From a virus: DNA of 64,000 bases. How positions within the stretch are numbered: position 1 is the stretch's first letter; every line of letters begins with the position of its first letter. Below, piece after piece: positions 13,069 through 63,489 of this stretch. A program made the translations under genes and the position numbers. Below the pieces are notes generated by a model. The model worked only from the letters and a program-made list of their open reading frames with translations. It was not told the origin of the DNA and searched no databases. The DNA is taken from IMG/VR virus record IMGVR_UViG_3300005337_000019, positions 1 to 64,000 of that record, one strand, 5' to 3'.

Positions 13069-13475
13069 GCCGGCCCCGGCCTTTTTTCAACGCCTTGCAT
13101 CTGCATTTGCCGCGTGATGTTGTTGCGCACGAACCCGACGCGACGATGTTCCGCCGGCGGCATCTCACCGCGACCATGGCGAAGCGGCCAGTGGTGAGCC
13201 AGCGCCTCAAGGCCCCACATGATGCGCTCGACCTCGTACTGCTGAAGGAGAAGCGCGAACAGGCGCGGCGTCTGCGTGTTCGGCTGATTATTCGCTGTCG
13301 CGCCGCAGAAGTCGGCCAAGCGACGAGATGCGCGGAAGACATTCAGCCGCTCGCCGGGGCTCATGTGCTGCACGGCCTCGAGGAGCGCCGCGTCGTCGCC
13401 AGCGACGGCCGCCCGCATCGCATCCGTAGCTGCTCGAGCAAGAGCATCCGCGTAGCTTTCACGATGATCACCCAT
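13065..13475 (-). CDS. Hypothetical protein
   Basis: Operon packing; N-terminus resembles that of 12314-12829. Confidence 0.55.
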   Translation of the reverse strand: MGDHRESYADALARAATDAMRAAVAGDDAALLEAVQHMSPGERLNVFRASRRLADFCGATANNQPNTQTPRLFALLLQQYEVERIMWGLEALAHHWPLRHGRGEMPPAEHRRVGFVRNNITRQMQMQGVEKRPGPA

Positions 13476-16568: not shown

Positions 16569-18346
16569 AGAGCAAAATGCACGTGTCCAGCGATCTATCC
16601 CTGCCGATCGAAGTCGCCACCCAGGCGGTCGGCATCTTCGGCATTCGCGGTGCTGGGAAAACGAACACCGCCGGCGTGATGGCCGAGGAGCTCCTGACCG
16701 CGAACGTGCCGGTCGCGATTATCGATCCGACCGACGCATGGTGGGGCTTGCGCTCGAGTCGCGACGGGCAGAGCGAGGGATTCCCGGTGTTCATCTTCGG
16801 CGGCGGTCACGGCGACTACCCGCTCGAGGAACACGACGGGAAAGTGATCGCCGAGTTCATCGTCACCGAGCAGGTGCCGGTGGTCCTCTCGCTTCGGCAT
16901 CTGCGCAAGGGCGCGCAGCGCCGCTTCGTGACGGAGCTCTGCGAGGAGCTGTACCACCTCAAAGGCAAGGTGGAGAACCGCTCGCCGCTCACCGTGTTCA
17001 TCGACGAAGCGCCGTCCTTCGTGCCGCAGAAGGTCATGGGCGACGTGGCGCGCACGGTCGGCGCCGTCGAAGACCTCGTTGCGCGCGGACGGAACGTCGG
17101 CTTCGGCGTGGTGCTGATCGCGCAGCGGCCGGCTACGCTCAACGCGGATGTGCGAAGCCTCTGCGACACGATCATCACGCACCGCGTGACGGGCAAGCTC
17201 GATCGCACGGCGTTCCGCGGGTGGATCGAGGAAAACGCGACGGTCGAAGAGATCGACGCGGTGCTCAAGAGCCTCGCGACCTTGCAGAACGGCGAGGCGT
17301 GGGTATGGTCGCCTGTGCTCGGGGTCATGCGCCGCGTGCAGATGCGCATGCGCGAGAGCTACGACAGCTCGCGCACGCCGAAGCTCGGCGAGCACGTTCG
17401 GCCGCCGAAGAAGCTCGCGGAGATCGACAAAGAGAAGTTGCGCGGGAAGCTGGCCGCCTCGGTCGAGCGCGCGAAGCAAAGCGACCCCGCCGAGATGCGC
17501 AAGCGCATTCAGGTTCTGGAGCGGCAGATCGCGAAAGGCCAGGGCACGCCGAGCGAATTGCAGAAGGGGATCATCGACGATGCCCGAGCTCGAGCAAAGG
17601 AAGCCGAGGCCGAAGTTCAACGCCTCACCGCGACGGTGCGGGAGTTGCGCGGGCGGCTGAAGCGCGCCTACGCGCACGCTGTCGCGATCGAACAGGAATC
17701 GGCGCTCGACAACGAACCGAAAGCGGCGCCGGCGCCGAGCCATGCGAAGACGTTCTTCCTCAACGAACAGCATGAGACGCACACGAGCAAGCGAGCACCG
17801 AAGGAAGCGCCACCGCGGCGCACGGCCGCGCCGGTGGCGCCGGTCGACGGAGACTTCACGCCGAACAGCGCGCAGCAGCGCGTGCTGAACGCGCTCGCGT
17901 TCTACCGCACGGTCGGCGTCGACGCGCCTGGCATCAAGCATGTCGGATTCATCGCCAAGATCAAGGCGAGCGGCGGTCACTTCCAAAACACGGTCGGGCC
18001 CCTGTCGTCACGCGGTCTCATCGAGCGTACGGACGGGCGAATCTCTCTCACCGCCGCCGGCGAGCCGTACGCCGTCGCGCCTGACACACCGCCGACGCTG
18101 CGCGATTACCACGCAGCCATCCGCGACATGCTGCGGACCGGCGCACAGCAGCGCGTGTTCGACGCGATCGCGGAGAGGGGCAGCGAGGCGGCCACTGTCG
18201 AGGAGATCGGAAAGGCCGCGAACATCGACCCGACCGGCGGCCACTTCCAGAATTCGATCGGCCCGCTGGTGACGCTCGGCGTCGTGACGCGCTCAAAGGG
18301 GATGGTGCAGCCGACCGACGTGATGTTCCCTCCGGAGCTTTCATGA
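16565..18346 (+). CDS. HerA/FtsK-like (DUF87) ATPase with coiled coil and two C-terminal wHTH-like repeats
   Basis: GIRGAGKT Walker A, IIDPT, VFIDEA Walker B, RGRNVG, AQRPA; duplicated AQQRV...GGHFQN..GPL. Confidence 0.85.
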   Translation: MKSKMHVSSDLSLPIEVATQAVGIFGIRGAGKTNTAGVMAEELLTANVPVAIIDPTDAWWGLRSSRDGQSEGFPVFIFGGGHGDYPLEEHDGKVIAEFIVTEQVPVVLSLRHLRKGAQRRFVTELCEELYHLKGKVENRSPLTVFIDEAPSFVPQKVMGDVARTVGAVEDLVARGRNVGFGVVLIAQRPATLNADVRSLCDTIITHRVTGKLDRTAFRGWIEENATVEEIDAVLKSLATLQNGEAWVWSPVLGVMRRVQMRMRESYDSSRTPKLGEHVRPPKKLAEIDKEKLRGKLAASVERAKQSDPAEMRKRIQVLERQIAKGQGTPSELQKGIIDDARARAKEAEAEVQRLTATVRELRGRLKRAYAHAVAIEQESALDNEPKAAPAPSHAKTFFLNEQHETHTSKRAPKEAPPRRTAAPVAPVDGDFTPNSAQQRVLNALAFYRTVGVDAPGIKHVGFIAKIKASGGHFQNTVGPLSSRGLIERTDGRISLTAAGEPYAVAPDTPPTLRDYHAAIRDMLRTGAQQRVFDAIAERGSEAATVEEIGKAANIDPTGGHFQNSIGPLVTLGVVTRSKGMVQPTDVMFPPELS

Positions 18347-46951: not shown

Positions 46952-47347
46952 ATGAAGAAGACGATCGCCACCTTCGCGATGTGCATCGCCGGTGCCCTTG
47001 CCGCGCTTTTGTGCGCGCAGGAGGCGCCGGCGCCCGCGCGTGTCGTCGTCCCGCTGTCGAGTGCCAAGCGCGCATGCACCTTCGCGCGCGGTGCGCGCTC
47101 CGTCTTTTACGAACGGCTGTATGTCGTGGCGAAGAAGGAAGTGCCCGCCGGCGAGCCGGATGAGTGGTGGGGCATCTTCCCCGACCGCAAACAATCTCGT
47201 GATGCGAACGGCCTCCTGCGCGCGGTGAATGTGCCCGCGGCGGAGGTGCTGTTTACCGACCCCCACGACGGTCCGCTTTTTAGTGGGTCGTGCAAATGCC
47301 CGCCGGGGATGTGGACCGGCATTCCAGCAACGAGCGCGGTGCAATAG
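46952..47347 (+). CDS. Secreted hypothetical protein
   Basis: AAGGAG RBS, signal peptide. Confidence 0.6.
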   Translation: MKKTIATFAMCIAGALAALLCAQEAPAPARVVVPLSSAKRACTFARGARSVFYERLYVVAKKEVPAGEPDEWWGIFPDRKQSRDANGLLRAVNVPAAEVLFTDPHDGPLFSGSCKCPPGMWTGIPATSAVQ

Positions 47348-47349
47348 CG

Positions 47350-50300
47350 ATGGACATCGTTCAGGGCGTTCGCATTGAGGTTCAGACGAAGGGTACCGAC
47401 AAGGTCGGCACTCTGAGCCGAAGTGTCGAAACGCTGATCGAAAAAGTCGGTGGCCTGAATAACCTGTCTCTCGCCGGGCTGACCTCCAACTTGAACAGCG
47501 CCGCGCAAGCCGCGGCGAATCTCGTCAAGTCCATCAGCGGAACCGCAGTGACGCAACAGACCGCGCAGATGGGCCGCTCCGTCACGGCGGCCGCCGAAAC
47601 GAGCTCGCGTGCCGTGGATCGCGCCGCGGCGCAGCAGGAACGTGCCGCCAAACGCGCCGCCGACACGCAGGCGCGGGAAGCGAAGCGCGCGGCCGACGCT
47701 GCTGAGCGCGAGCAGAAGCGGGCGACGGACGCCGCCGAGCGCGAGCAGAAGCGACTCACCGATGCGGCGGAACGGGAGCACCGCCGCATGACGGCGGCTG
47801 TTGAACGCGAGGCGCGCAAGCGCCAGGCGGCCATCGAGCGCGAGGCCCGCGCCGAAGAGCGCGAGATGATGAACCTCGCCACGCGCGCCGCGCGAGGAGT
47901 GCAGCGCAACTTTGCGCTCGGCAAGCTCACGGACGGGCAAACGTCGACGCTCGGCAGCCTCGGTCTCTCGGCCTCCAGTCTTGCCGGGATGGCGACGAAA
48001 GACGCGGCGAAGGCCATCAACGAAGCGTTGGGCAACATCCCGGACAAAGCGGAACGCACGCGCATGGCGTTTCAGCTCATGGGGCAGGCCGCGCAGTCGG
48101 CGACGCCGCAGATCAATTCCCTGAGCGGCGGCCTGATCGTCCTCCTACAGTCCTTCATGAAGGGCGGCACGAGCGGCATGTCGGCGGCGCTCGGCGCGCT
48201 GATCAACCCGTTGACGATCATCCTTGCCCTCGTCTTCGCCGTGACGGCCGCGTTCCGGATTCTCGTCAACGTCATCTCCATGGTCGCGAGCGCGATGTAC
48301 GAGGCCGGGAAGACGGGGCTCGAGTACAACGCGTTTCTCCTTGAAGCGAAGCTCGGCATCGGCTCGCTGCTGATGACCTACGGCCGATGGATCGACGGGC
48401 AGGGGCGCGTTATCGATTCGTCCCGCGCCTTTGTGCGCGCGCAGCAGTTGTCGGTGCAGGTGCTCGAGCAGGCCCGCATCGCCGCGCTGGAGACCACCGC
48501 CACATTCCCGGAAATGGTGAGAGGGCTTCAAGAGGGCATGGGTCCGGCCCTGCAGGCCGGCTTCAACCCGACGCAGGTGGTGAGGTTCACGCAGGCGATG
48601 ACGCAGGCCGCCGGCGCGATCGGCATGCCGTTCGAACAGCTCGGCCAAGAAATCCGCGGCGTGTTCGAATTCGACTTCTCCAAGAACAGCCGCATCAGCC
48701 GCATGCTGTTTCAGGGCATGGGCAAGAGCGCCGAGGAGCTGCGCACGCAGTTCGCGGCGATGAGCTCCGCCGCGCGGTTCGATTTCATCATGGACCGGCT
48801 GAAGGCGTTCAGCCTCGCCGGCGATCAGCTCGCGCGCACGCCCAAGGGCGCGCTGTCGAACCTCAAGGACGCGTATCAGCAGATTCTCGGCGCCGGCACG
48901 GTGAAGCTGACGGACGACTTCACGAAGGCGGTGCTGCGCCTGTCCAACTCGTTCCTGATCGTTGGGAAGAACGGCGAGAAGGCATTCAATCCGTTCCTCA
49001 TCGAGGCGATCAAAAAGACGTACGACAGCGTCGACCGTCTCGGCATGAGGGTGCTCGATCTCGCCGAGGCGTTCTCCGCGCTCGTTCCGTTCGTGTCGTT
49101 GGACTTCAAAGGCGACACCACTTTTGAGCGCCTGTCGGACGCGATCAGCGACGCCACGCACAAGCTGCGCGAATACGCCGAAATCCTGCGCGACATCAGC
49201 AACCACCCGTGGAGCTGGGCGAGCACCGGCGCCACCGCGGGATTGATGGGGATGATGCCGTTCGGCACGCCGCTCGCCGCGCTCATCCTGAAATTGCGCG
49301 GAGCGACGAGCGGCCAATCCGCGAGCGCACGGGTCAGCGAAGAGGACGACTGGCTCAAGGACATCGCCGATCCGAAGGTCGCGAAGTGGATTGCCGAGAA
49401 CAGCACGGAGAACGGAGACCGGCGGTGGATTCGCGAGAACATCTCGTGGCTCAAGCAACTGCGCATTCAGTCCGGCGGGCCGGCGGCAGAAGAAGGTGCC
49501 ATGCCGAACACCGGCAACGTCGACGCCTACTACCTGCAATACGACAAGCCCGACGACGCCGACACGGCCCACAAGATCGAGCAGATGAGGCAGGGTGTCG
49601 AAACGGCGCAGCAGCAGGCCAAGCTCGCGGGTACGGTGAACCAGTACGACCGCGAAAACCTCCAGCTCAAGATCGCGATCGGCAACGCCGACGAGAAGCT
49701 CCTGAAATCGCGCGCCGAAGCCGAGAAGATGGAGGGCTCGGCGAAGCAAAAGACCGAGCTCCTGGCGCTTGCGCAGAAGCAATCGGATGCCGACAAGCTC
49801 GCCGCGCAGAACGCCTACAGCGTGGCGATGGATCGCATCTCGCGCCAGGCGAACGAACAAGTTCGGTCCGCGCAGGCGCAGCTCGAGATCACCCGCATGC
49901 AGATCGGTGCGGCGGGCAAGCTCGATGAGCTCGTGCGCGCGCGCGTAAATCACAACGTGGCGCTTGCGAACATCGAGAACGAGCGTCTGTCGACGCGCGC
50001 CGGCATCGACCCCGGCAACCCGAACAAGGGGCGTCTGGAGAGCCTTGCCGATCAGACCGCGGCGGCGAAGCGCACGGCGGAAAACGTCGCGTACGAGGAA
50101 TCGATCGCGGAGACCACGCGGCAGCAGGAAGAGCAGACGCGCGCGATGAAGTTCTCGGCCGACCAGGCCGAACGGAACCTCAGCCTCGCCCACGCGACCT
50201 TCGATGTGGAGAAGGCGAAGACGGCGGAGATTCTGACGCAGGGCGACGCAGCCCGGCTCGCGATCACGCAGCGCATCGCGGCCGAGACCGAGTACGAGAA

Positions 50301-53142
50301 CAAGCGTCTGGAGATCGAGGAGAACACTCGCAAGGCGATCGCCGAGCAGCAGGCCCTCATCAAAAGCTCCGAGCGGCGCATCGAACTGCACGTTGCGCTA
50401 CCGGAAGACACGCAGGCGATCCAGCGCGCGACCGATCGCATCAAGGAAATCACGCGCAAGGGCACCGCGGAGATCGAGACCGAGCGCGTGAACCGCGACA
50501 CGAAAATCATGCAGGTCTACGCCGAGATGCAGAAGACGATGCGCACCTCTCGGCAGCAGACCGAAGAGGCGCGCGCCGCGCAGGTGGCCGGCGATGAGGC
50601 GGAACGTGGCCTCGAAATCGCGCGCGCCACGCTCGATGTCGAGAGGGCGCGGTCGGCCGAGATCATGACGCAGGCCAACGCCTCACGCATGGCGAGCGCC
50701 GAGCGTCTCGTCGCCGAGCAGGAGTTCGAATCGAAGCGCATCGCGATCGCCGAGGAAGCAAACAAACAGATCGCCGAACAGCGGTCGATCATCGATACGG
50801 CGACGCAGCGCATCAACGGGAATTTCGACGGGATCGCGGCGACGCCGGCGGACTATCAGGCGTTGGATCGCGCGATCGCGCGCATTCGCGAGATTCAGCG
50901 CAAGGCGAACGCCGACACGCTGAAGGAGCGGCTGCAGCTCAACGCGAATACCACGAACATCGACATCAATGAACAGCGCAACCGGCAGGAGGCCCTCAAC
51001 ACGCTCCGCGGCGATTCGTACGCCATCGAGCTCGCCGAGAAGATCATCCATGAGCGGGCGAAGGGCACGATCGAAGGCGCCGAGGCGGCGCGCTCTGCGG
51101 CGCACCTGCTGCGCATCTACCTCGACACGCTCGATCTGATCGAGGACCACTGGAAGAACGTCGCTCAATCCATGGCGGACTCGGTCACCTCGGCATTCGA
51201 AACGATGCTGCGCGGCGGCAAGCTGGCGGACGTGGCGAAGGCCATCGGAGAGGTTTGGCAAAAGAACGCGCTGGGCGACATCAGTGAATGGCTGAAGAAC
51301 TGGGCCGGCAAGGTGGCGAACGCGGCGAACGGCCGCGACGCCAACGGTAACGTGATCCCGGACGGCTCCCCTGGCGCGAAAGGCTCGCCCGAGCAGAAAC
51401 GCGCGATGGTCAAGCTCGGCGCAGCGCAATCGGTCGGTGCTGGCCTTGCCGGCTATGCCGCGGGGCAGGGCGGCGGAGCTGCGACCGCGTCGGCCGTCGC
51501 CGCGTTCGCATCGGGGCTGATGTCCGGAAACATCTACGTCGCGATCGCTGCCGCGATTGCGTCGCTGATCGGATCGGCGATCGCCGGCGAGCAGAAACGC
51601 GCCAACTACAAATACGGCGTTCCCACCTTCCTCGGAAATGGGCAGGTGGACGTGCAGGGCACGCGCAACATCGAGAAGCCCGAGCGCGACGCGATGATTT
51701 CGAAGTTCCAGAGTCAGTTTAATGACCAGTGGAACGCCTGGGTGAACATCGCGCTCAAGCTGCCGGGCACCAAAATCCCGAAGCTGGACACGGCGTTCAC
51801 GCCGTACTCTCGCGACTATTTCCAACCCGAGGCGTCGCAGAACTTCCTCAAGCACTGGGACGAATACCTCGCCAACACGTTGCCCGACGAGATCGCCGGC
51901 AAGTTCAAAGACGGCCTCCGTGCGTCGTTCATCGACGCGATGGCGACGATGGCCCGAGGTCCTGTAACGGCAGACGTGAAGAAGCTGCTCGGCGCGCAGT
52001 TCGATAAGTTTTGGGCCGAAGCCGACAAACTCGACGCAAACAAGCGGACGCAGTTCTGGAGCGATCTCGCGGACGGTCTCAACGCCTTCGCCAACGCGCA
52101 GCGCCGCCTGAAGAACGTCGGCCTCGCGATGGGCAACCTGTCGGCCGCACGCTTCGACGAGAACGGCAATTTCAAACAGAACGGCGATTCCGACTTCGTC
52201 TCGACGCTCAAGCAAGGCACGCAGGGCATCTTCGATCAGGCGCGCGCAATGGTGAACCTCACGGGTCCGGATCGCGTTGCCGCGTTCAAGCAACTGGGGC
52301 AATCGATCGAACAGGTGACCAAGTCGCTGAGCGACTACATCGCCCACATCGGCGAGGTGCTGCGCAACCTGCGCAACAGCTTCGACGACGCTTACTACCA
52401 GCACAAGCTCTTCATGGCCGGCGAGGTTCAGGACGCGAACGGCAACGTGATCCATCCGGCCGACAAGAACGCGCAAGCGCGGATCATGGAGGAGGAGTAC
52501 AACCGAACCGTCAACAAAATCCAGAACGCGGCATCGCTCGGCCTGAGCGCCGACGAAGTGGAGGCACTGACCAACAAGGCGATGGGCCTGCTCAACGACA
52601 TCTTCATGCTCGACCCGACCGCGAAGGCGGATGCGTGGTGGGCAGATCAGATGGCCGTTCTCGACCGGCTGAGCCAGCAGTCGATTCTCGAGCTCGGTGA
52701 GAGGGCAAAGAGCGCGGTCGACAAGCTCTTGCTGGAGGTGCAGCCGTTCGTCGATTGGTTCAACGGTCTGCCCGTCGATCTGAAGGCCGCGCAGGCCGAG
52801 CTCACCGGGCCGGGAGGAGCGTTCGACGGATTCGCTCAGGCGCTCGAGGACCTGACGAAGCGCATCAACGAAACCTTGCCGGGCGGCGGCACGACGCCGA
52901 GCGGTCCCGGCACTGGCGGCAACGGTCCTGGCGATGGCGGCACCGGCGGCGAAAAGAATCAGGACCTTCGCACTGGGTCCTCTTTCTCGGCATCCTCTGC
53001 GGCGGTGGTCACGTCCGCCGGCGACACGTACAACTTCTACTTTGGAAACGTCTACGGCGTGGATGACCTTCAGGGACAGATCCTCGCCGCGATCGAGTAT
53101 GCGGCCAACAGCAAGCCGCAAATCCTACAGAGGAAATGGTGA
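47350..53142 (+). CDS. Tape measure protein
   Basis: About 1930 aa, Ala-rich and helical; tape-measure domain (ALETTATFPEMV...LSNLKD); hydrophobic segments. Confidence 0.92.
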   Translation: MDIVQGVRIEVQTKGTDKVGTLSRSVETLIEKVGGLNNLSLAGLTSNLNSAAQAAANLVKSISGTAVTQQTAQMGRSVTAAAETSSRAVDRAAAQQERAAKRAADTQAREAKRAADAAEREQKRATDAAEREQKRLTDAAEREHRRMTAAVEREARKRQAAIEREARAEEREMMNLATRAARGVQRNFALGKLTDGQTSTLGSLGLSASSLAGMATKDAAKAINEALGNIPDKAERTRMAFQLMGQAAQSATPQINSLSGGLIVLLQSFMKGGTSGMSAALGALINPLTIILALVFAVTAAFRILVNVISMVASAMYEAGKTGLEYNAFLLEAKLGIGSLLMTYGRWIDGQGRVIDSSRAFVRAQQLSVQVLEQARIAALETTATFPEMVRGLQEGMGPALQAGFNPTQVVRFTQAMTQAAGAIGMPFEQLGQEIRGVFEFDFSKNSRISRMLFQGMGKSAEELRTQFAAMSSAARFDFIMDRLKAFSLAGDQLARTPKGALSNLKDAYQQILGAGTVKLTDDFTKAVLRLSNSFLIVGKNGEKAFNPFLIEAIKKTYDSVDRLGMRVLDLAEAFSALVPFVSLDFKGDTTFERLSDAISDATHKLREYAEILRDISNHPWSWASTGATAGLMGMMPFGTPLAALILKLRGATSGQSASARVSEEDDWLKDIADPKVAKWIAENSTENGDRRWIRENISWLKQLRIQSGGPAAEEGAMPNTGNVDAYYLQYDKPDDADTAHKIEQMRQGVETAQQQAKLAGTVNQYDRENLQLKIAIGNADEKLLKSRAEAEKMEGSAKQKTELLALAQKQSDADKLAAQNAYSVAMDRISRQANEQVRSAQAQLEITRMQIGAAGKLDELVRARVNHNVALANIENERLSTRAGIDPGNPNKGRLESLADQTAAAKRTAENVAYEESIAETTRQQEEQTRAMKFSADQAERNLSLAHATFDVEKAKTAEILTQGDAARLAITQRIAAETEYENKRLEIEENTRKAIAEQQALIKSSERRIELHVALPEDTQAIQRATDRIKEITRKGTAEIETERVNRDTKIMQVYAEMQKTMRTSRQQTEEARAAQVAGDEAERGLEIARATLDVERARSAEIMTQANASRMASAERLVAEQEFESKRIAIAEEANKQIAEQRSIIDTATQRINGNFDGIAATPADYQALDRAIARIREIQRKANADTLKERLQLNANTTNIDINEQRNRQEALNTLRGDSYAIELAEKIIHERAKGTIEGAEAARSAAHLLRIYLDTLDLIEDHWKNVAQSMADSVTSAFETMLRGGKLADVAKAIGEVWQKNALGDISEWLKNWAGKVANAANGRDANGNVIPDGSPGAKGSPEQKRAMVKLGAAQSVGAGLAGYAAGQGGGAATASAVAAFASGLMSGNIYVAIAAAIASLIGSAIAGEQKRANYKYGVPTFLGNGQVDVQGTRNIEKPERDAMISKFQSQFNDQWNAWVNIALKLPGTKIPKLDTAFTPYSRDYFQPEASQNFLKHWDEYLANTLPDEIAGKFKDGLRASFIDAMATMARGPVTADVKKLLGAQFDKFWAEADKLDANKRTQFWSDLADGLNAFANAQRRLKNVGLAMGNLSAARFDENGNFKQNGDSDFVSTLKQGTQGIFDQARAMVNLTGPDRVAAFKQLGQSIEQVTKSLSDYIAHIGEVLRNLRNSFDDAYYQHKLFMAGEVQDANGNVIHPADKNAQARIMEEEYNRTVNKIQNAASLGLSADEVEALTNKAMGLLNDIFMLDPTAKADAWWADQMAVLDRLSQQSILELGERAKSAVDKLLLEVQPFVDWFNGLPVDLKAAQAELTGPGGAFDGFAQALEDLTKRINETLPGGGTTPSGPGTGGNGPGDGGTGGEKNQDLRTGSSFSASSAAVVTSAGDTYNFYFGNVYGVDDLQGQILAAIEYAANSKPQILQRKW

Positions 53143-55017: not shown

Positions 55018-55637
55018 CGGCTTTCATCGATCTCTCGCCCGACACGCTCGGCGTCGGCAACAAGTACCGCATGGTGCCGTTGTGGGGGCCGAAGTCCGTG
55101 CACTCGCGTGGCGCGCCGCAGTTCACCGGCTTCCGAAAGTTCCGGCGCCCGCGGTTCACGTTCGACCTGGCGTGGACGCAACTCGAAAAGCCGATCGCGC
55201 AGGAGATCGATCGACACGTGCGCGCGCAACTCGCCACGGTGTTCCCGTTTGATTGGTTCGACTGGTATTCGTGGTGGTGGCAGTCGGTCCTCGTTGGCGT
55301 TGGCAACGGCGTCACGGTGCAATGGGTTTTGCCGGCGAAGGACGTAACCGACGTGACCATCTACACCGGCGGCGCAACGCTCGCCGGCGGTGCGAACGAT
55401 CGGCAACTGATCGGCGGCAACATCGAATATCGCATCGGCCCGAACCTCGAGGACGGCGTCACGCTCTTTTCGCCGCCGCCGGCGGGGCGACCGATTTGGG
55501 CGTACTTCCGCGGCCGCCGCCGCTGGAACGTCACGATCGAATCCGACCTGCAGCAGGCGCTCAGCCGCGACCTCGATACCGGTCTCTACTCGGTTCCGAT
55601 GCGCATCATTCAGACGAAACCAACGGTGACCGCATGA
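55014..55637 (+). CDS. Distal tail protein (DUF2460-like)
   Basis: PRFTFDLAW, FPFDWFDW, GVGNGVTVQWVL, VTLFSPPPAG. Confidence 0.65.
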   Translation: MTAFIDLSPDTLGVGNKYRMVPLWGPKSVHSRGAPQFTGFRKFRRPRFTFDLAWTQLEKPIAQEIDRHVRAQLATVFPFDWFDWYSWWWQSVLVGVGNGVTVQWVLPAKDVTDVTIYTGGATLAGGANDRQLIGGNIEYRIGPNLEDGVTLFSPPPAGRPIWAYFRGRRRWNVTIESDLQQALSRDLDTGLYSVPMRIIQTKPTVTA

Positions 55638-58600
55638 GCGATCTACGCGAAATCAAAGGGGACGAGACCGAAAGCGACCGCGCCAAACGCGAGCGTGAGA
55701 TCGAGCGCGGCGCGACTGTTCTGAACGAACAGATCGAGCGTCGGCGGGCGACTGGATCAACGCCGGAAGTCATCTCGCGCGGCCCGTTCACCGTTCCGAA
55801 CCGGCCATACATCCCCGGCGCAGGTCCGCCGGCAGCGGCGCCGACCGAGCGGACGTTCCTCGATCCGCGCGAGTACACGACGACGATGAGCGCGGCCGGG
55901 CTGCCCATCGACATCGCGCTCGGGCGATGCCTTCAGCCGCAGACGAAGCTGATTTACGAGGAGTCGTGGGCGAATTCCACGGTTCTCACGTGGATCGTGT
56001 CGCTGTGCGAGGGCCCCATTCAGTCGGTGCAGCCGATCGCCGACAACAAGCCGCTGCGGATGGCCTCCGGCAGCTTCACGAACCCCAACGGCACGCTGTT
56101 CGTCGACGACACGGGCTTCATTCGCGTCTACGTCTACGACGGCTCGCAGACCTCGATCGCATCGTCGGGGCTCGGCACGTACGACGCGCTCGCCGCGGCC
56201 GAAGAAGTTCACACCGGGATCGCGCTGGCCGTCGTGTTCATCACCTTCGACAACGACAAGATGAACACGGCACCGACGATGACGTGGGTGCTCGAGGGTT
56301 ACCGTTTGTGCAAGGACCCCGTCGACGGCGTGCGGCGCTATTCGCCGTATCCGCCCGTTCACGCGCGCGAGCTGCTGACGAACACGACGTGGGGCATTCA
56401 ACTGCCCGACGACGCGCAACATCTCGACGACCACCTCACGAACCTCGGCGGCTGGGGCCGCGCGCGTAATGACTGCGCGGTCGCGATTTTCCCGCCGACG
56501 CCGTCCAACGCTCCAACGGCCGCGATCACGGGATCCGGCAGCATCCCGGCGGGCGGCTACTGGTACACGTTCACCAGCGTAACGGGCGATGGCGTGGAAA
56601 CGCTCGAGTCGCCGCTCTCGGCGCAGGTCACGGTGGCGGCCGGTCCATCAAAGCAGATCACGGTGACCGTGCCCGCCGGCGGCGCCGGTACAGCGAAGCG
56701 GAACGTCTATCGCAACGCGACGATCGGCGTACAGACGCCCCGATATCTCGTCGGCACCATCAGCAGCAACACCGCCGGCGCGACCCTCGTCGACAACACG
56801 GACAACACGACATTGCTCGGCCAGGGCGTCACGGCGCCCACCGTCGCGCCGCGCCCGGAGCGGTACATCGCCGGAATCCTCATCTCCCGGCAGGCTAACG
56901 GACAGGACTGGCTCGACACGATCCTTGCGCACTTCGCCGGCAAGATGACAATGGACAACGGCCGCTATCAGTGCCGCGTGGATCAAAAGCTCGACGCCGG
57001 CTACACGAAGATGGTCCTCCGGGATGAGATTTACGACACCGGGACGGATCTTCTGGTGGGATCGCCTGAGCTCGCGCCGGCGAACGTCGATCCGATGAGC
57101 GTCGAGGTGTGGCGGAAGGACGAGACCGAGCTTTTCAACGTCATCACCATCAACTACCTCGATTCCAACAACAACTTTCAGTCCGCGAGCGTCACGCTGA
57201 AGCGCGACAAGGTGAAGGCCCTGCTCGAGCGGCCTCGTATCGCGACGTTTGAGCTTCCGGGATGTCCCGACAAGAACCAAGCGATGCGCCTCGCCACGCT
57301 TTACCTCAACCGGGCGTGGGACGATCTGTTGTGGCGCGTGCGCGGCGATCGCGCACTGCTGGCGCTGCAGCCGGGTCTGGACGTCGCGCATCTGCTCATC
57401 GGTGGGCTCGTTTTCGATGGGCGCGTGCTGAAGCTCACGACGGATGGTGACGCTTTCATCGCTGAAGGTGAGGAGTACCAGGAACCGAGCTATGCCGAGC
57501 GCGTGCAGAACGAGGACTCGCCGATCGGTTCGACGATTCCTGACCCGAGCGCGACGCCGCCGAACCCGACGAACTGCGCCGTGCGCGAGGTGATGAGCGA
57601 AGGCACCGGCGGCGCCTCTGGCTACTTGCTGGTGAGCTTCACGCCTGGCAACACGCCGTATTACCGCGCGACCCGCGTGGTGGTGAACGACGGCCTCAAT
57701 ACCTACGTCGCCGGCGAGATGGCCGTGGGCCCGATCCCGGTCCGTAATCCGCGTCGCGGGTATCCGCACATCATCACGCTCTACACGATCACCGATCGCG
57801 GAACCCGCATCTCGACCGGCTTCGTGTTGGCGCCGATCACGCCGCAGCTCCTCGGCCCGGTCGTCCCGGACGTGCAGAACCTCTCGGCTCCGTTCGACAC
57901 GTTCACGAACCGCGGCACGATCACCTGCACGCTGCCTCCGTATGTCGGCATCGACCACATCGAGATTTTCGACAACTACGGCAACCCCGCGGTTCCGCCC
58001 CGTCGCCACAGCGTTCCCGCGTCGACCGTGGCCGCAGGTCAGCCGATCGATCTCAAAGACATGATCCACGGCGACGGGTATACCGACGATCTCTCCTTCA
58101 GCATCATCGTCAAGGTGGTCAACTCGTTCGGCGACAAATCGCCGGGGTTGCCGATCACGTGGAAGGTAGCGCGCAACGGCCAGGCGAGTTACGCGGTCGG
58201 ATACGACCCGCGCGATGTCACCTTCGACGGCGCGAAGATTTGGGTGAGCAACTACAACGGCGCGAACGTGTCGCGCCTCGATCGAAGCACGACCCCCGCC
58301 ACGGTCGACCTGACCGTGTCCGTTGGATCGAAGCCGTTCGGCATCCTCTACGCGAACGGCTACGTGTGGGTGGCGAACTTCGGCAGCGACTCGATCACGA
58401 GGATGAACCCTGACGGCACTGGCGTGACGACGCTGAGCCTCACAGCCGGTGACGGGCCGATCGGCCTCGTGAAAACGGTCTCGTCTACGGGCGCGCAATC
58501 CATCGCCATCAGTTGCCACACCTCGGGCAAGGTGAAGGCGATCGATTTGTCGACGCTTTCGGTGTTGCCGTGGTCCGCGACGGTCGGCCGCAAGCCGTGC

Positions 58601-59137
58601 TTCATGTACCCAGTCACGGTGAGCGGGAAGCTCTTTCTCTACGTCTGTAACTACCTCGACAACACGCTGAGCGTGATCAATGAGGCCGGCAGCGTCATCG
58701 CCACGATTCCCGTGGGGCAGGGTCCGTTCGGCCTCACGTACGACGGCACGAACCTGTGGATCTGCAACTACGCGGATTCGACGATGTCGATCGTGAACCC
58801 CGCGACGAACACGGTGGTCGGAACGGTGGTGCTCGGAACGCACACCGGCCCCACCGACGCGGCGTACGTGAACGGTTACGTGTGGGTGACGGAGGCTCAG
58901 GCGCGCCAGCTCACGCGCATCAACGTGAACACGCGCACGGCAACGGCCCACACACCGCAGCCATCGTCGCCGCGGTCGATTCTGTACGACGGCACCGATC
59001 TATGGATGCCGCTCAATCTCAACGACGCCTCGAGCACGGTGCCGGTCACCGTGACGAATCCGGGACCTGGCGGCGGAACGTCGGCACCGGTGAACTTCAA
59101 GATTCTCGGTCTCGATCCGTCACCGTTACCGTCCTAA
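55634..59137 (+). CDS. Tail tip / central fibre (J-like hub, FN3-like domains, YVTN beta-propeller) ending in a foreign half IPT domain
   Basis: SLCEGPIQSV, FNVITINYLD, ELPGC..QAMRLA; six full and one truncated YVTN blades; final TVPVTVTNPGPGGGTSAPVNFKI. Confidence 0.88.
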   Translation: MSDLREIKGDETESDRAKREREIERGATVLNEQIERRRATGSTPEVISRGPFTVPNRPYIPGAGPPAAAPTERTFLDPREYTTTMSAAGLPIDIALGRCLQPQTKLIYEESWANSTVLTWIVSLCEGPIQSVQPIADNKPLRMASGSFTNPNGTLFVDDTGFIRVYVYDGSQTSIASSGLGTYDALAAAEEVHTGIALAVVFITFDNDKMNTAPTMTWVLEGYRLCKDPVDGVRRYSPYPPVHARELLTNTTWGIQLPDDAQHLDDHLTNLGGWGRARNDCAVAIFPPTPSNAPTAAITGSGSIPAGGYWYTFTSVTGDGVETLESPLSAQVTVAAGPSKQITVTVPAGGAGTAKRNVYRNATIGVQTPRYLVGTISSNTAGATLVDNTDNTTLLGQGVTAPTVAPRPERYIAGILISRQANGQDWLDTILAHFAGKMTMDNGRYQCRVDQKLDAGYTKMVLRDEIYDTGTDLLVGSPELAPANVDPMSVEVWRKDETELFNVITINYLDSNNNFQSASVTLKRDKVKALLERPRIATFELPGCPDKNQAMRLATLYLNRAWDDLLWRVRGDRALLALQPGLDVAHLLIGGLVFDGRVLKLTTDGDAFIAEGEEYQEPSYAERVQNEDSPIGSTIPDPSATPPNPTNCAVREVMSEGTGGASGYLLVSFTPGNTPYYRATRVVVNDGLNTYVAGEMAVGPIPVRNPRRGYPHIITLYTITDRGTRISTGFVLAPITPQLLGPVVPDVQNLSAPFDTFTNRGTITCTLPPYVGIDHIEIFDNYGNPAVPPRRHSVPASTVAAGQPIDLKDMIHGDGYTDDLSFSIIVKVVNSFGDKSPGLPITWKVARNGQASYAVGYDPRDVTFDGAKIWVSNYNGANVSRLDRSTTPATVDLTVSVGSKPFGILYANGYVWVANFGSDSITRMNPDGTGVTTLSLTAGDGPIGLVKTVSSTGAQSIAISCHTSGKVKAIDLSTLSVLPWSATVGRKPCFMYPVTVSGKLFLYVCNYLDNTLSVINEAGSVIATIPVGQGPFGLTYDGTNLWICNYADSTMSIVNPATNTVVGTVVLGTHTGPTDAAYVNGYVWVTEAQARQLTRINVNTRTATAHTPQPSSPRSILYDGTDLWMPLNLNDASSTVPVTVTNPGPGGGTSAPVNFKILGLDPSPLPS

Positions 59138-62100
59138 CAAGGACCTATGTAGGTACTACTTAGAACCAGAAGGGGACCAGCGGAAACTAGTTAAAACCAG
59201 TAAAAACTAGTTTTTACCGTCTGAAATACGATGGCGACACTCAGCAGCCTCACTCCGAACAGCAAGCCGGTCGGCTCGCCGTCATTTGTTCTGACGGCCA
59301 CCGGGTCGGGATTCATCCACCGCACCGGCGGCACGATCGATGACCCGACATACGCCTATCCGGATGTGATCGAGTTCAACGGCAACGAGTATCAGATCGA
59401 TCCGACCACCGCGAGCGGCAACAGCGTCAGCGCCACGATCCCCGCTTCGGAGTTGACCGTCGCCGGCACGTACAGCGTCCGGGTGATCCTCGACGACTTG
59501 ACGGCGAGCAACAGTGTGTCCTTCAGCGTCACGGCGACGGTGCCGACGCTGACCAGCGTCTCGCCGACCAGCATCGCCGCCGGCGGCAGCGCGCAGATCA
59601 CGTGCAACGGCACGAGCTTCACGGCCTCGAGCGTCGTACGCGTCGACGGCGTCGATCAGACGACGACGTTTGTGAGCTCGACGCAGATCAAGACGACGGG
59701 CAGCTACGCGTTCTCCGCCATCGGGAAGATTCAGACGGTCACGGTCAACACGCCGGGCGTCGGCGAGTCGGGCGGACAGTCGATCACAGTCAACAACCCA
59801 GTGCCGACGATGAGCAACATCTCGCCGGCGAGCGTGAACGTCGGCGATCCGACGTTCACCATGACCATCACCGGCACGGGCTTCAATGGAAGCACTCGCG
59901 CGGCGATCAGCGGTTCGTTCCGCGACACCGTGGTCGTGAGCTCGACGACCCTCCACGTCACGATTCTGAACACGGACCTCGGCAGCGCCGGATCCCCGGT
60001 CATCGGCGTGGTCAACCCCTCGCCTGGCGGCGCGACAATCCGCAACGATCAGGCGCCGAACATCACCGCCTTTACGATCAACAACCCCGTTCCCGTCATC
60101 GACAGCATCTCGCCGTCCTCGGTCATGTCGGGCAGCGGCGCGACGACGATCACGGTCACCGGCAGCCTATTCGTCAGCGGCACCGGTGCGAGCGTTGTGA
60201 AATGGAACGGCGTTGCGCAGACGACCACGTTCGTCAGCGGGAACCAGCTCACCTTCGCTGCCACGCAAACGATGCTGGCGCAAGCCGGCACGGCGACGGT
60301 GACGGTGTTCAACGGCGGGCCGGGCGGCGGCACGTCGAATTCGAAGACGTTCAACATCACCGGCGGCACGCCGAACCTCAACAGCATTACGCCGTCGACG
60401 GTGCCCGCGAACAGCACGACGGGGATCATCCTTGCCGGCAGCAACTTCTCGACCTCGTTCACCGTTCGCATCAACGGTGCGTCCGTCGCCGCGAACTGGA
60501 TCAACTCGACGCGGATCGATGTGACCGTCACGCCGTCGATGGTTCCGACCGCCGGCGATTACACCGTGACCGTGACCAACAACGGCGCAGGCGGCGGCAC
60601 CTCGCAGACGCGCCACCTGACGGCGACGAATCCGGCGCCGACGCTCACGTCGCTCTCGACCACCACGAAGACAGTCGGGGACGCGGCCTTCACGCTGACT
60701 CTGACCGGCACGGGCTTCATCAGCGGCGCGAGCTCGGGTACGGTCAGCGGAGCTGCGCGGACGACGACGTTCGTCAGCTCGACATCACTTCAGATCGCGA
60801 TCACGGCTTCCGACCTGGCTACGGGTGGAACGCTCGCGATCGGGGTGACGAACGCCAGTCCGGGCGGTGGCTCGAGCTCGACCATCAACCTCACGGTGAA
60901 TTACCCCGTTCCCACGGTCAGCAGCTTCGACAGCAATACGATCGTGATCGGATCGCCGGACACCACCGTCGTGATCAATGGCACGGGATTCGGCACCGGT
61001 TCGCAGGTGAAGATCGGCGCCACGAACCTCACCACGACTTACGTGAGCTCGATCAAGCTGCAGGCGGTGGTGCCGGCATCGTCCCTCACCACGATCACGA
61101 CGCTGAGCCTCACGGTCACGAACCCGACGCCAGGCGGCGGCACCGTGTCATGCCCGACGCTGTCGGTGGTGAATCCAGTGCCGGCCATCTCGTCGCTCTC
61201 GCCGGCGAACGTCAACGCGGGGAGCGCCGCGTTCGATCTCACGATTACCGGCACCGGCTTCCGGTCTGGTGTCTCCTCGGCCTACATCAACGGATCGGCC
61301 CGCACGACGACCTTCAACAGTTCTACGCAGCTCACGATGGCCGTCAACGCGAACGACGTGACGGCGGCCGGCACGTTGAACGTCACGGTCGTGAACACTG
61401 GTCCGGGCGGTGGCTCGTCGGCGCCGGCGCCGTTCTATGTCGGCTCCGTCAATCCCGTGCCGACGCTCACGAGCATCAGCCCATCCACGCGGAATGCCGG
61501 TGACCCAGGCCCCGTGGTCACCGTCACCGGCACCAACTTTCTGACCTCGAGCGTGGTGCGCTGGGAAGGTGCCGATCGGCCGACGACGTATGTCGACGCG
61601 ACGCACCTGACCGTGCAACTTCAGAACGGCGACCTCGCGCTTCCCGGCACGTACAACATCACGGTATTCAATCCGGCGCCCGGCGGCGGCCTCTCTGGCG
61701 CGAACGGGTTCGTCGTCGTCGCGGTGAACCCCGCTCCGCAAGTCACGAGCGTCTCGCCGGCGTCGGCAACCACCGGCGGCGGTTCCTTCACGCTGACGAT
61801 CAACGGTGCCCAGTTCATCGCGACCTCGACCGTCCGGATTACCGATGCGGTCGGTGGCGTAACGAATCCGACGCCGACGTTCGTCAACTCGACCACCCTG
61901 ACCGTAACGGTTGCCTCGTCGGCGATCGTCAACGCTGGCTCGGTCACCGTGCAGGTCACCAATCCGACGCCGGGCGGCGGTTCCGCGTCGACGACGTTCA
62001 CTGTTGGATCGGGCAACCCTGTTCCGACCATCGCCAGCATCTCGCCGACGACGGTCAACGTGGGCGCCGCGGCGACGACGCTGACCATCAACGGGACCGG

Positions 62101-62486
62101 CTACATCGCCACCTCGCAGGTGAAGGCGAACGGCACGAACCTCACGACCACATTCGTGAGCTCGACGCAAGTCACGGCGACGCTCACCACCACGTTCACC
62201 GGCACCGCGGGCATCGTGCAGATCACCGTGACCAACCCGGCGAGCGGCGGCGGAACGTCGAACGTGTACGCATTCAATGTGCTCAACACGACGAATCCGG
62301 TGCCGTCCATCGACAGCCTCTCGCCCGAGCAACTTCTGCGCGGCCTGGCGACGTTCGTTCTCGCAGTCTTCGGGAAGAACTTCATTCCGTCGAGCACGGC
62401 CGCGTTCAACGGCGTGAACAAAACAACCACCTACGTCTCACCGACGCGAGTCGATGCGTCGATCCCGGCGGCCGACATCGCGCTCG
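59031..62486 (+). mobile_element. Putative excisable or permuted-gene segment (3456 bp) with complementary ends
   Basis: In-frame reciprocal junctions at CGA (59031-59033 and 62487-62489); 24-nt ends give 18 Watson-Crick and 2 G-U pairs. Confidence 0.55.
59165..59220. repeat. AT-rich, 10-bp-phased ACYAG repeat array with palindrome
   Basis: ACYAG at 59165, 59176, 59186, 59196, 59206; palindrome gtaaaaactagtttttac at 59200-59217. Confidence 0.7.
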
Positions 62487-63172
62487 CGACGGGCGGCGTC
62501 GCGCGGGTCAACCCGAACGGTCATCCGGAGAGCCTGTCCGCGAACGCGCAGAACGTGCGCGCCTTTGCCGCCGGCAGCGCCGAAGCGCCGGCGATGACCA
62601 TCGGTCCGAATGCCACGAAGACGGGCTGGCACGCCCCGGAAGAGCACACCTGGGAATGGGTTGCGAATACGATCTCGCAGATGCGTCTCGGCCCTGACGG
62701 GGTCGAAACGTCCGATCTCGCGGTGTACGGCGATCACGACGTGCACAACTCGACGGGCGCGCTGATGATCATCAACATCACGAGCACCGGGAGCAGCTAC
62801 TCGAGCATCCCCACGGTCACGATCGGCGCGCCGCCGCCGGCGGGGCATCAGGCAACCGCGGTGGCGGTGCTCGACGGCGACGGCGGGGTCGATCACATCG
62901 TCATGGTCGATTCGGGCGAAGGGTATGACCCCGCGAACCCGCCGAGCGTGACGATCACCGGCGGCGGCGGCACCGGCGCCGCGGCGACGGCTGTGGTGAC
63001 GAGCGGCCTCATGGCGTCGGTGGCGAATGGGTTCATCTACATCCCGACGCTGAACGGGCAACCGAACGGCGTGCCGCCGACGAAGACGGGTCTCGCGCCG
63101 ATGGTGCTCGACACCTTGCACAACAAGCTATGGGTGTACCGCGGTTCGTGGAAGGGCGTGGGGCTGACCTAG
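59231..63172 (+). CDS. IPT/TIG (Ig-like) repeat protein fused to a tail-fibre C-terminus
   Basis: About 12 NP.PT(L/I).S(L/I)SP...VTNP.PGGG repeats, the last truncated; then GGVARVNP and fibre-like domains ending LDTLHNKLWVY.GSW. Confidence 0.88.
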   Translation: MATLSSLTPNSKPVGSPSFVLTATGSGFIHRTGGTIDDPTYAYPDVIEFNGNEYQIDPTTASGNSVSATIPASELTVAGTYSVRVILDDLTASNSVSFSVTATVPTLTSVSPTSIAAGGSAQITCNGTSFTASSVVRVDGVDQTTTFVSSTQIKTTGSYAFSAIGKIQTVTVNTPGVGESGGQSITVNNPVPTMSNISPASVNVGDPTFTMTITGTGFNGSTRAAISGSFRDTVVVSSTTLHVTILNTDLGSAGSPVIGVVNPSPGGATIRNDQAPNITAFTINNPVPVIDSISPSSVMSGSGATTITVTGSLFVSGTGASVVKWNGVAQTTTFVSGNQLTFAATQTMLAQAGTATVTVFNGGPGGGTSNSKTFNITGGTPNLNSITPSTVPANSTTGIILAGSNFSTSFTVRINGASVAANWINSTRIDVTVTPSMVPTAGDYTVTVTNNGAGGGTSQTRHLTATNPAPTLTSLSTTTKTVGDAAFTLTLTGTGFISGASSGTVSGAARTTTFVSSTSLQIAITASDLATGGTLAIGVTNASPGGGSSSTINLTVNYPVPTVSSFDSNTIVIGSPDTTVVINGTGFGTGSQVKIGATNLTTTYVSSIKLQAVVPASSLTTITTLSLTVTNPTPGGGTVSCPTLSVVNPVPAISSLSPANVNAGSAAFDLTITGTGFRSGVSSAYINGSARTTTFNSSTQLTMAVNANDVTAAGTLNVTVVNTGPGGGSSAPAPFYVGSVNPVPTLTSISPSTRNAGDPGPVVTVTGTNFLTSSVVRWEGADRPTTYVDATHLTVQLQNGDLALPGTYNITVFNPAPGGGLSGANGFVVVAVNPAPQVTSVSPASATTGGGSFTLTINGAQFIATSTVRITDAVGGVTNPTPTFVNSTTLTVTVASSAIVNAGSVTVQVTNPTPGGGSASTTFTVGSGNPVPTIASISPTTVNVGAAATTLTINGTGYIATSQVKANGTNLTTTFVSSTQVTATLTTTFTGTAGIVQITVTNPASGGGTSNVYAFNVLNTTNPVPSIDSLSPEQLLRGLATFVLAVFGKNFIPSSTAAFNGVNKTTTYVSPTRVDASIPAADIALATGGVARVNPNGHPESLSANAQNVRAFAAGSAEAPAMTIGPNATKTGWHAPEEHTWEWVANTISQMRLGPDGVETSDLAVYGDHDVHNSTGALMIINITSTGSSYSSIPTVTIGAPPPAGHQATAVAVLDGDGGVDHIVMVDSGEGYDPANPPSVTITGGGGTGAAATAVVTSGLMASVANGFIYIPTLNGQPNGVPPTKTGLAPMVLDTLHNKLWVYRGSWKGVGLT

Positions 63173-63489
63173 CGGGCGGCGGTTGCTCTACGCCGGATTG
63201 CATCCATCGCATGCAGGAGCATGCCCGGATGCTCGATCGTGCCGCCGAGCTCCCAACGGGAGATCGTCGCGACGCGGATCGGCTTTCCGGGAGAGCCGAG
63301 CTCGACGCCGAGCTCCTCCTGCGTCATGTGCGGATGCTTGCCGCACGTGCACGGCAGCGCCATGCGGCGGCGGCGCAACTCCTCGCCGTAGTTGATGACG
63401 CGCGCTCGCTTCGCTGAGCGCGGACGACGGCGCGATGATGCGGGGACTTGTCGCGTTTGTTTGGCAGCGAGGGGCGTCTTGGAAGGCAT
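63169..63489 (-). CDS. XRE/Cro-type HTH regulator (candidate repressor)
   Basis: MTQEELGVELG...VATISRWELG; GAGGAG RBS; divergent from a class-1 promoter. Confidence 0.8.
   Translation of the reverse strand: MPSKTPLAAKQTRQVPASSRRRPRSAKRARVINYGEELRRRRMALPCTCGKHPHMTQEELGVELGSPGKPIRVATISRWELGGTIEHPGMLLHAMDAIRRRATAAR

Follow-up and report, generated by a model that had tools for sequence, protein, structure and literature searches.

The DNA analysed here, called the window, is a stretch of 64,000 nucleotides (positions 1 to 64,000 of the IMG/VR virus record IMGVR_UViG_3300005337_000019), taken from a linear source record of 82,990 bases with ~65% GC and a CheckV completeness of 72%. Our subject is a pair of neighbouring tail genes, here named A and B: the first ends in part of an IPT domain that follows a beta-propeller, and the second is an array of IPT domains whose last member is recognisable only in part. 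A reading of this DNA from its letters alone (the sequence-only reading) had pointed out that the two genes seem to carry each other's C-termini, and had offered three accounts of this, namely a DNA minicircle, RNA splicing, and a fixed pair of chimeric proteins that complement each other's folds. Recomputation returned the same coordinates, the same shared frame (start offset 3597 = 3x1199) and the same distance of 3456 bp between the two junctions (62487-59031 = 3456 = 3x1152). The features of the locus are as follows.

55634-59137, plus strand: gene A, 1167 aa, J-like tail-tip protein with a C-terminal YVTN propeller.
58184-59032, plus strand: seven-bladed YVTN beta-propeller up to strand B of blade 7 (residues ~851-1133), from an AlphaFold2 (AF2) model and a structural match.
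59033-59104, plus strand: orphan IPT-type F-G hairpin, residues 1134-1157, motif PVTVTNPxPGGGxS.
59105-59137, plus strand: linker-like end LG.D.SPLP and stop codon, resembling the NPVPT linker between IPT units.
59138-59230, no strand assigned: 93-bp AT-rich spacer with five in-frame stops and two AAACTAGTT palindromic motifs.
59231-63172, plus strand: gene B, 1313 aa, IPT/TIG array.
59231-62287, plus strand: IPT/TIG units 1-11 (PF01833; the array's own profile finds 11 full-length units).
62297-62485, plus strand: IPT unit 12, strands A-E only by profile (hidden Markov model (HMM) and hhalign).
62486-62695, plus strand: conserved post-E segment and connector (GGVARVNP ... APAMTIGP ... TGWH ...), with a ratio of nonsynonymous to synonymous substitution rates (dN/dS) of 0.15.
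62696-63172, plus strand: exchangeable distal module, a phage-fibre repeat domain and a fibre-tip motif (library and PHROG matches).

Gene A qualifies as a J-like tail-tip protein by its match to Phage-tail_3 (PF13550) over residues 418-581, which at 44.4 bits lies above the curated cut-off of 23; it also matches the tail protein family phrog_4271 (E=1e-8). Its C-terminus is made of YVTN/Vgb-lyase-type repeats. An AF2 model of residues 845-1167, computed from an alignment of six sequences, has a mean pLDDT (predicted local distance difference test) of 86, reaching ~95 in the blades, and a pTM (predicted template modelling score) of 0.83. Its best structural match is 1l0q_A (VIA Z=34.1, root-mean-square deviation 2.1, 264 residues, 26% identity), and Vgb lyase superposes on it as well (Z=33.5). 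The model has seven four-stranded blades that superpose on solved YVTN propellers, with seven-bladed propellers aligning to model residues 2..285-288. Counting the N-terminal velcro strand, 27 strands precede the tail; residues 1134-1138 of the tail (model 290-294) form a predicted 28th strand and VNFKI a 29th. Blade 7 is in this way closed by gene A's own chain in the model, a prediction that is weak because pLDDT in the tail is only 61-67.

The character of this tail is apparent from profile comparisons. We built an IPT HMM of 91 positions from gene B's own eleven complete units, and gene A residues 1134-1157 align to positions 64-88 of it with 17-24 bits. When a profile of blade 7 plus the tail (from the six homologous A-type proteins) was compared with a profile of 44 IPT units, hhalign gave a probability of 96% and E=6.4e-9. 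The tail shares a mean identity of 40% with the F-G hairpins of the units, equal to that of the units among themselves, and the DNA at 59019-59083 has 60-75% identity to the stretches of the IPT units that encode these hairpins, which is the level of an old paralogue and not of a recent copy. Beyond the hairpin, the gene's end (L-G-x-D-x-S-P-L-P) reads like the N-P-V-P-T linker that stands between IPT units. All six A-type proteins terminate in the hairpin and SPLP, even where their identity falls to 46-47%, and invariant among them are P1137, V1138, T1141, N1142, P1143, P1145, G1146-G1148 and S1150 in the hairpin, and G1159, D1161, S1163, P1164, L1165 and P1166 in the linker-like end. On these comparisons the tail of gene A is a genuine IPT-type F-G hairpin. 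HMM and hhalign agree in this with the sequence-only reading, which had described six full blades and a seventh that breaks off and gives way to the closing part of an IPT repeat.

In the N-terminal half of gene A, at 56630-56701 (residues 333-356), the stretch QITVTVPAGGAGT also bears a weak resemblance to an IPT hairpin. Against the IPT HMM it reaches 3 bits, and over 45 nt its DNA is 76% identical to that of the hairpin of unit 11; it probably belongs to an FN3/Ig-like insertion, as its F-G region. An Ig-like domain upstream of the propeller was also considered as the A-E part that would belong to the orphan hairpin, and was rejected on inspection by eye only, as it has F-G-like strands of its own.

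Gene B matches IPT/TIG (PF01833) with 195.8 bits and comprises 12 units in total, of which units 1-11 give full-length profile matches. Four B-type proteins were compared (P0002, P0004, P0237 and P0274). In all four, the alignments of units 1-11 to the IPT HMM reach position 89-90 of 91, whereas that of unit 12 ends at position 62-74 of 91. The hhalign alignment of unit 12 covers columns 2-64 and ends at ...ADIAL, which coincides with the breakpoint at DIALA where the last repeat had been said to halt; the 47 residues after the breakpoint have no IPT similarity (P=0.45). Appending the tail of gene A to unit 12 raises its IPT score from 63, 63 and 49 to 93, 94 and 73 bits in three phages.

The reverse match is far less evident. 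What follows unit 12 (TGGVARVNP) had been taken to be the missing strand of blade 7, and this match is not confirmed beyond chance: restoring the blade changes its HMM score by +2.5, +0.4 and -2.0 bits in three phage pairs (-2.0 for P0007/P0274), and GGVARVNP falls in the C-strand register of the blade profile with an hhalign P of 0.042. As a candidate blade strand, the post-E segment is marginal. Together with the connector it was found only in the four B-type proteins and in a fragment, P0198, which lies on an 848-bp contig and is uninformative. Searches with the connector for an unsplit form of the gene either returned B-type proteins only or were flooded by matches to the repeat of the fibre, a PDB sequence search with the C-terminus of gene B gave chance-level matches only, and an ESM Atlas look-up of the connector gave a score of 0.82, under the useful range.

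Beyond the connector the gene is a mosaic. The repeat of the distal module has 4320 library matches, falls in PHROG tail-fibre families and is present in thousands of phage fibre and virion proteins. The distal modules of the window phage and of its closest relative, contig L001 described below (~16870-17704 there), are unrelated, that of L001 ending in another IPT domain, and P0274 terminates directly after the connector. This boundary looks like the exchange of receptor-binding modules on a conserved connector; since the connector is conserved while the distal modules differ, it would be the conserved base on which they are mounted. Along gene B, unit 1 is the least conserved in comparison with the three homologues (55/47/34% identity) and units 6-8 are the most conserved, unit 12 plus connector standing at 70/67-75/44-48%.

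Relatives of the pair are few. Five homologues of gene A were found, with 46-74% identity. The closest (74%) is on L001, an independent contig that is also listed as L003 and L004 and of which one copy is labelled as a Gemmatimonadaceae metagenome-assembled genome. Its layout repeats that of the window: A tail, stop, spacer (15 nt), a B homologue in the same frame, a truncated unit 12 and the connector. An A-type gene (P0007, 61% identity) and a B-type gene (P0274) lie on one Logan contig of 110,730 bp and probably represent a third lineage with a matching layout, the adjacency of the two genes being deduced. Scans of viral, metagenome and genome contigs gave that one related contig under its three names and nothing further, a scan with P0008 gave no matches, and neither megablast nor tblastn found relatives of the A/B module among GenBank phages.

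Between the window and L001 the rate of synonymous substitution (dS) is 0.7-1.4, so that synonymous sites are near saturation. Against this background dN/dS is 0.078 in the A tail (residues 1134-1167, hairpin and linker-like end), compared with 0.30 for gene A as a whole and 0.42 for blades 1-6, making the tail the most constrained part of gene A; in gene B it is 0.38 for IPT units 1-11, and the value for the post-E segment and connector is that given in the list above. The hairpin in A and the truncated unit in B, their conservation and the selection acting on them are matters of direct observation, and comparison of the sequences indicates that the arrangement is fixed and old. Diverged relatives with a matching layout, at this dS, therefore exclude an assembly artefact and a recent insertion; the former had been named in the sequence-only reading as what would overturn it, and the matching layout in independent contigs contradicts it. 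The unsplit gene that the sequence-only reading had proposed to look for in relatives did not turn up among the A and B homologues, nor did an empty site, since 6/6 A-type proteins have the tail and 4/4 B-type proteins have the truncated unit 12.

The spacer itself is not part of what is conserved. Its five in-frame stops exclude read-through from A into B. The motif AAACTAGTT is unique to the spacer within the window, and one copy lies inside a perfect palindrome, AAAAACTAGTTTTT. The window spacer has no visible Shine-Dalgarno sequence ahead of the ATG of gene B, and no promoter or terminator consensus; the spacer of L001 carries an AGAGGA Shine-Dalgarno-like run. L001 lacks the AT-rich spacer, which the module has therefore not conserved.

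These comparative data bear directly on the two accounts in which the split is reversible. In one, a DNA element spanning 59031-62486 would alternately integrate and excise, so that the genes switch between a split and a restored state; in the other, RNA splicing yields a restored mRNA, with GACGCCTCG joined to ACGGGCGGC, and a coding circular RNA with a back-splice junction. Both have the in-frame arithmetic in their favour, and the first has in addition the CGA shared by the two junctions, which had been proposed as the exchange site. That stretch is just 3 nt long, and the longest exact word shared by the junctions in the window is 6 nt, below the mean of 7 for a null set whose maximum is 10, so nothing resembling an att repeat is present. 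Profiles for tyrosine and serine recombinases (PF00589, PF00239) found nothing in the 82,990-bp record, bearing out the remark that no recombinase is visible, although in a record that is 72% complete such absence is not proof. An empty site occurs in no relative, the layout stays unchanged in relatives as far apart as dS 0.7-1.4 and 74% identity, and the spacer, which would be the sole non-coding part of the circle, is unconserved (93 nt versus 15 nt). Splicing fares no better: a scan of 58500-63300 found no Rfam family at E<=0.1 and no intron family, its one match being at chance level (a togavirus frameshift element, E=0.38), and the best RNA duplex between the segment ends (-71.5 kcal/mol) is within the random range, being equalled or beaten by 13% of random windows in gene B and 7% elsewhere. 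Both chimeric termini are, moreover, under strong purifying selection as proteins. The fixed and conserved layout in relatives therefore leads us to reject both accounts on comparative grounds; we regard the excising element as extremely improbable and give splicing hardly any chance. Scarcely better placed, and still very improbable, is the idea that the resemblance of the tail is fortuitous or the contig chimeric. Each of the two motifs is a short beta-hairpin with NP at its end, and similarity at the DNA level is inflated by GC-rich codons, but the profile match at E=6.4e-9, the invariance of the tail across six homologues and the identical layout in independent assemblies speak otherwise.

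One longer shared word was noticed in L001, where the 12-nt sequence CGCGCCTGGCGG is common to the A tail (13294-13305) and the E-F loop of B unit 12 (16657-16668). It exceeds all of 200 random pairs (maximum 10) and encodes Ala-Pro-Gly-Gly, within N-P-A-P-G-G in the A tail and L-A-P-G-G in B. The word is offset from the domain junctions, and recombination there would restore neither domain; the sharing is probably a codon-level coincidence in Pro/Gly-rich, GC-rich sequence.

There remain two readings in which A and B are lasting partners. The one that we favour, tentatively and at somewhat less than even confidence, is that A and B are separately translated virion proteins that form an old, fixed two-protein module with a T5-like string of Ig-like domains at the joint. 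Gene A would be the J-like tail-tip protein, its propeller running past strand B of blade 7 into an IPT F-G hairpin and a PxP linker, and gene B the fibre, with its 12 IPT units, conserved connector and exchangeable distal receptor-binding module. We infer an origin by recombination, a role in docking and a geometry for the joint: the hairpin would have been left behind when, long ago, the last blade recombined in frame with an IPT repeat, the strands involved having a V.V.NP-type motif in common, and we propose that it owes its retention to its place in the joint that links tail tip and fibre. The first strand of the tail would close blade 7, while the PGGG turn, the G strand and the linker would offer an IPT-like face that continues into the IPT string of gene B; the last IPT of B could be closed by a diverged segment of its own, or through swapping among the chains of a B trimer. 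The sequences at the joint favour such a string. Gene B begins exactly at an IPT A strand, and the end of A (D-P-S-P-L-P) and the start of B (A-T-L-S-S-L-T-P) together resemble an inter-IPT linker followed by an A strand. The two genes share a frame in both the window phage and L001, as the splitting of a single open reading frame (ORF) would leave it; with insertion of a circle and an unconstrained spacer this would come about in ~1 in 3 to 1 in 9 cases.

Several observations weigh against this preferred reading. The IPT-specific turn PxPGGGxS is strictly retained in A, which suggests surroundings of IPT type for the hairpin even now, and in none of the homologues does the sequence profile recognise F-G strands that belong to unit 12 itself. 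Unit 1, which would be the docking end of B, is unexpectedly its least conserved unit (34-55%). The tail of A, moreover, is modelled with a pLDDT of just 61-67 against ~95 in the propeller, and an AF2 model of gene B residues 930-1313 reached a pLDDT of 41, with ~70 in unit 11 and ~30 in unit 12. Because its alignment had three sequences only, this last model is uninformative on unit 12; it does not contradict an incomplete unit.

Most of these points are what one would expect if the hairpin of A supplies the missing F-G strands of B unit 12, again in a fixed layout and, optionally, with GGVARVNP of B supplying strand C of blade 7 in return. The connector and receptor-binding module would then be anchored at the tail tip and units 1-11 would form a free whisker, and a single in-frame crossover would have made both chimeras, viable at once. 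We consider such complementation doubtful, though a serious candidate. At the level of sequence the two genes do form a split-domain pair, with an acceptor that lacks its terminal strands in all four B-type proteins and a donor of an orphan pair on the other polypeptide. It is further supported by the score of the restored unit 12, which is that of a normal unit (93/94/73 bits), by the two junction segments being the most constrained parts of their genes, by the invariant turn in A, by the low conservation of the N-terminal unit of B, by the failure of AF2 to fold unit 12 alone, by the blade C-strand register of the post-E segment (P=0.042) and by parsimony, one event accounting for both features. 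Its blade-strand half rests on that marginal match, which is lost in the P0007/P0274 pair, and AF2 gives blade 7 a strand from gene A itself. The gene B model, with its three-sequence alignment, offers no help, and a nicked IPT string accounts at least equally well for the linker-like end of A and for the frame that A and B share in both phages. No precedent is known for different proteins exchanging strands both ways at the tip of a phage tail, and we found no described strand-complementation joint of the A/B form in the literature. The data are thus compatible with complementation, and the support is circumstantial. Its fullest form, in which one crossover produced two chimeras that reassemble by two-way strand exchange into a conserved joint with an 11-IPT whisker, is rather unlikely. 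A congruence test, in which unit 8 proved closest both to strands A-E of unit 12 and to the A tail, has no power in this matter, because unit 8 is consensus-like and true units agree in only 1/11 cases.

The surroundings of the pair are those of a tail module. The start of gene A overlaps the stop of the upstream ORF through ATGA, and an in-frame TGA lies two codons ahead of the ATG of gene B. Four small ORFs separate gene A from a 1950-aa ORF (47290-53142), which has no Pfam match at E<=0.01 and, to judge by its length and place, presumably encodes the tape measure protein. Between that ORF and the tail-tip genes, an ORF at 53136-53705 matches the Pfam family FA_hydroxylase (PF04116) with 32.8 bits (cut-off 31) and has no PHROG match, an odd gene to find within a tail module.

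What the pair amounts to is neither a mobile element nor an RNA circle. It is unusual in pairing two conserved oddities, half of a domain on a tail-tip protein and a truncated domain on the fibre encoded next to it, and it belongs to a lineage of uncultivated phages that is without GenBank phage relatives. If complementation were true, a single recombination would have split two domains and created a protein-protein joint in one step, a route for mounting exchangeable receptor-binding modules on a siphophage tip. A parallel to such a joint exists in chaperone-usher pili, where an Ig-like fold without its C-terminal strand(s) is completed by one strand donated between like subunits. The likeness, visible here at the sequence level, lies in the incomplete Ig-like fold with a matching strand on another polypeptide; in the candidate pairing of A and B, by contrast, the donor would be a tail-tip protein that gives a fibre a two-strand hairpin and possibly receives a strand in return. 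The archaeal S-layer protein 1L0Q (YVTN propeller plus PKD) shows that cellular proteins, too, can carry an Ig-like module immediately behind a propeller, although there the propeller is followed by a complete PKD domain, whereas gene A keeps the F-G hairpin only.

Among phage proteins, gene A is like lambda gpJ in its PF13550 match above the cut-off and in its position, just upstream of the fibre gene and a few small ORFs downstream of the 1950-aa ORF. It differs from gpJ in that the C-terminal receptor-binding domain is replaced by the YVTN propeller and hairpin, and in having no similarity to any GenBank phage record. Of known systems, the module appears closest, by analogy, to the central fibre of T5, in which a string of FNIII domains runs from the C-terminus of pb3 (baseplate hub) into the N-terminus of pb4, followed by the spike and the receptor-binding protein pb5 (PMC10038345). 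As in T5, the Ig-like string would start at the end of the tail-tip protein and be carried on by the protein encoded next to it, with the receptor-binding part distal, past a conserved joining region. Neither A nor B has sequence similarity to pb3 or pb4; in contrast to T5, gene A carries two Ig-like strands behind its YVTN propeller rather than a complete Ig-like domain at its end, and the last Ig-like unit of gene B is without recognisable F-G strands. Should there be no complementation, the A/B module would be a T5-like central fibre that bears the scar of a recombination.

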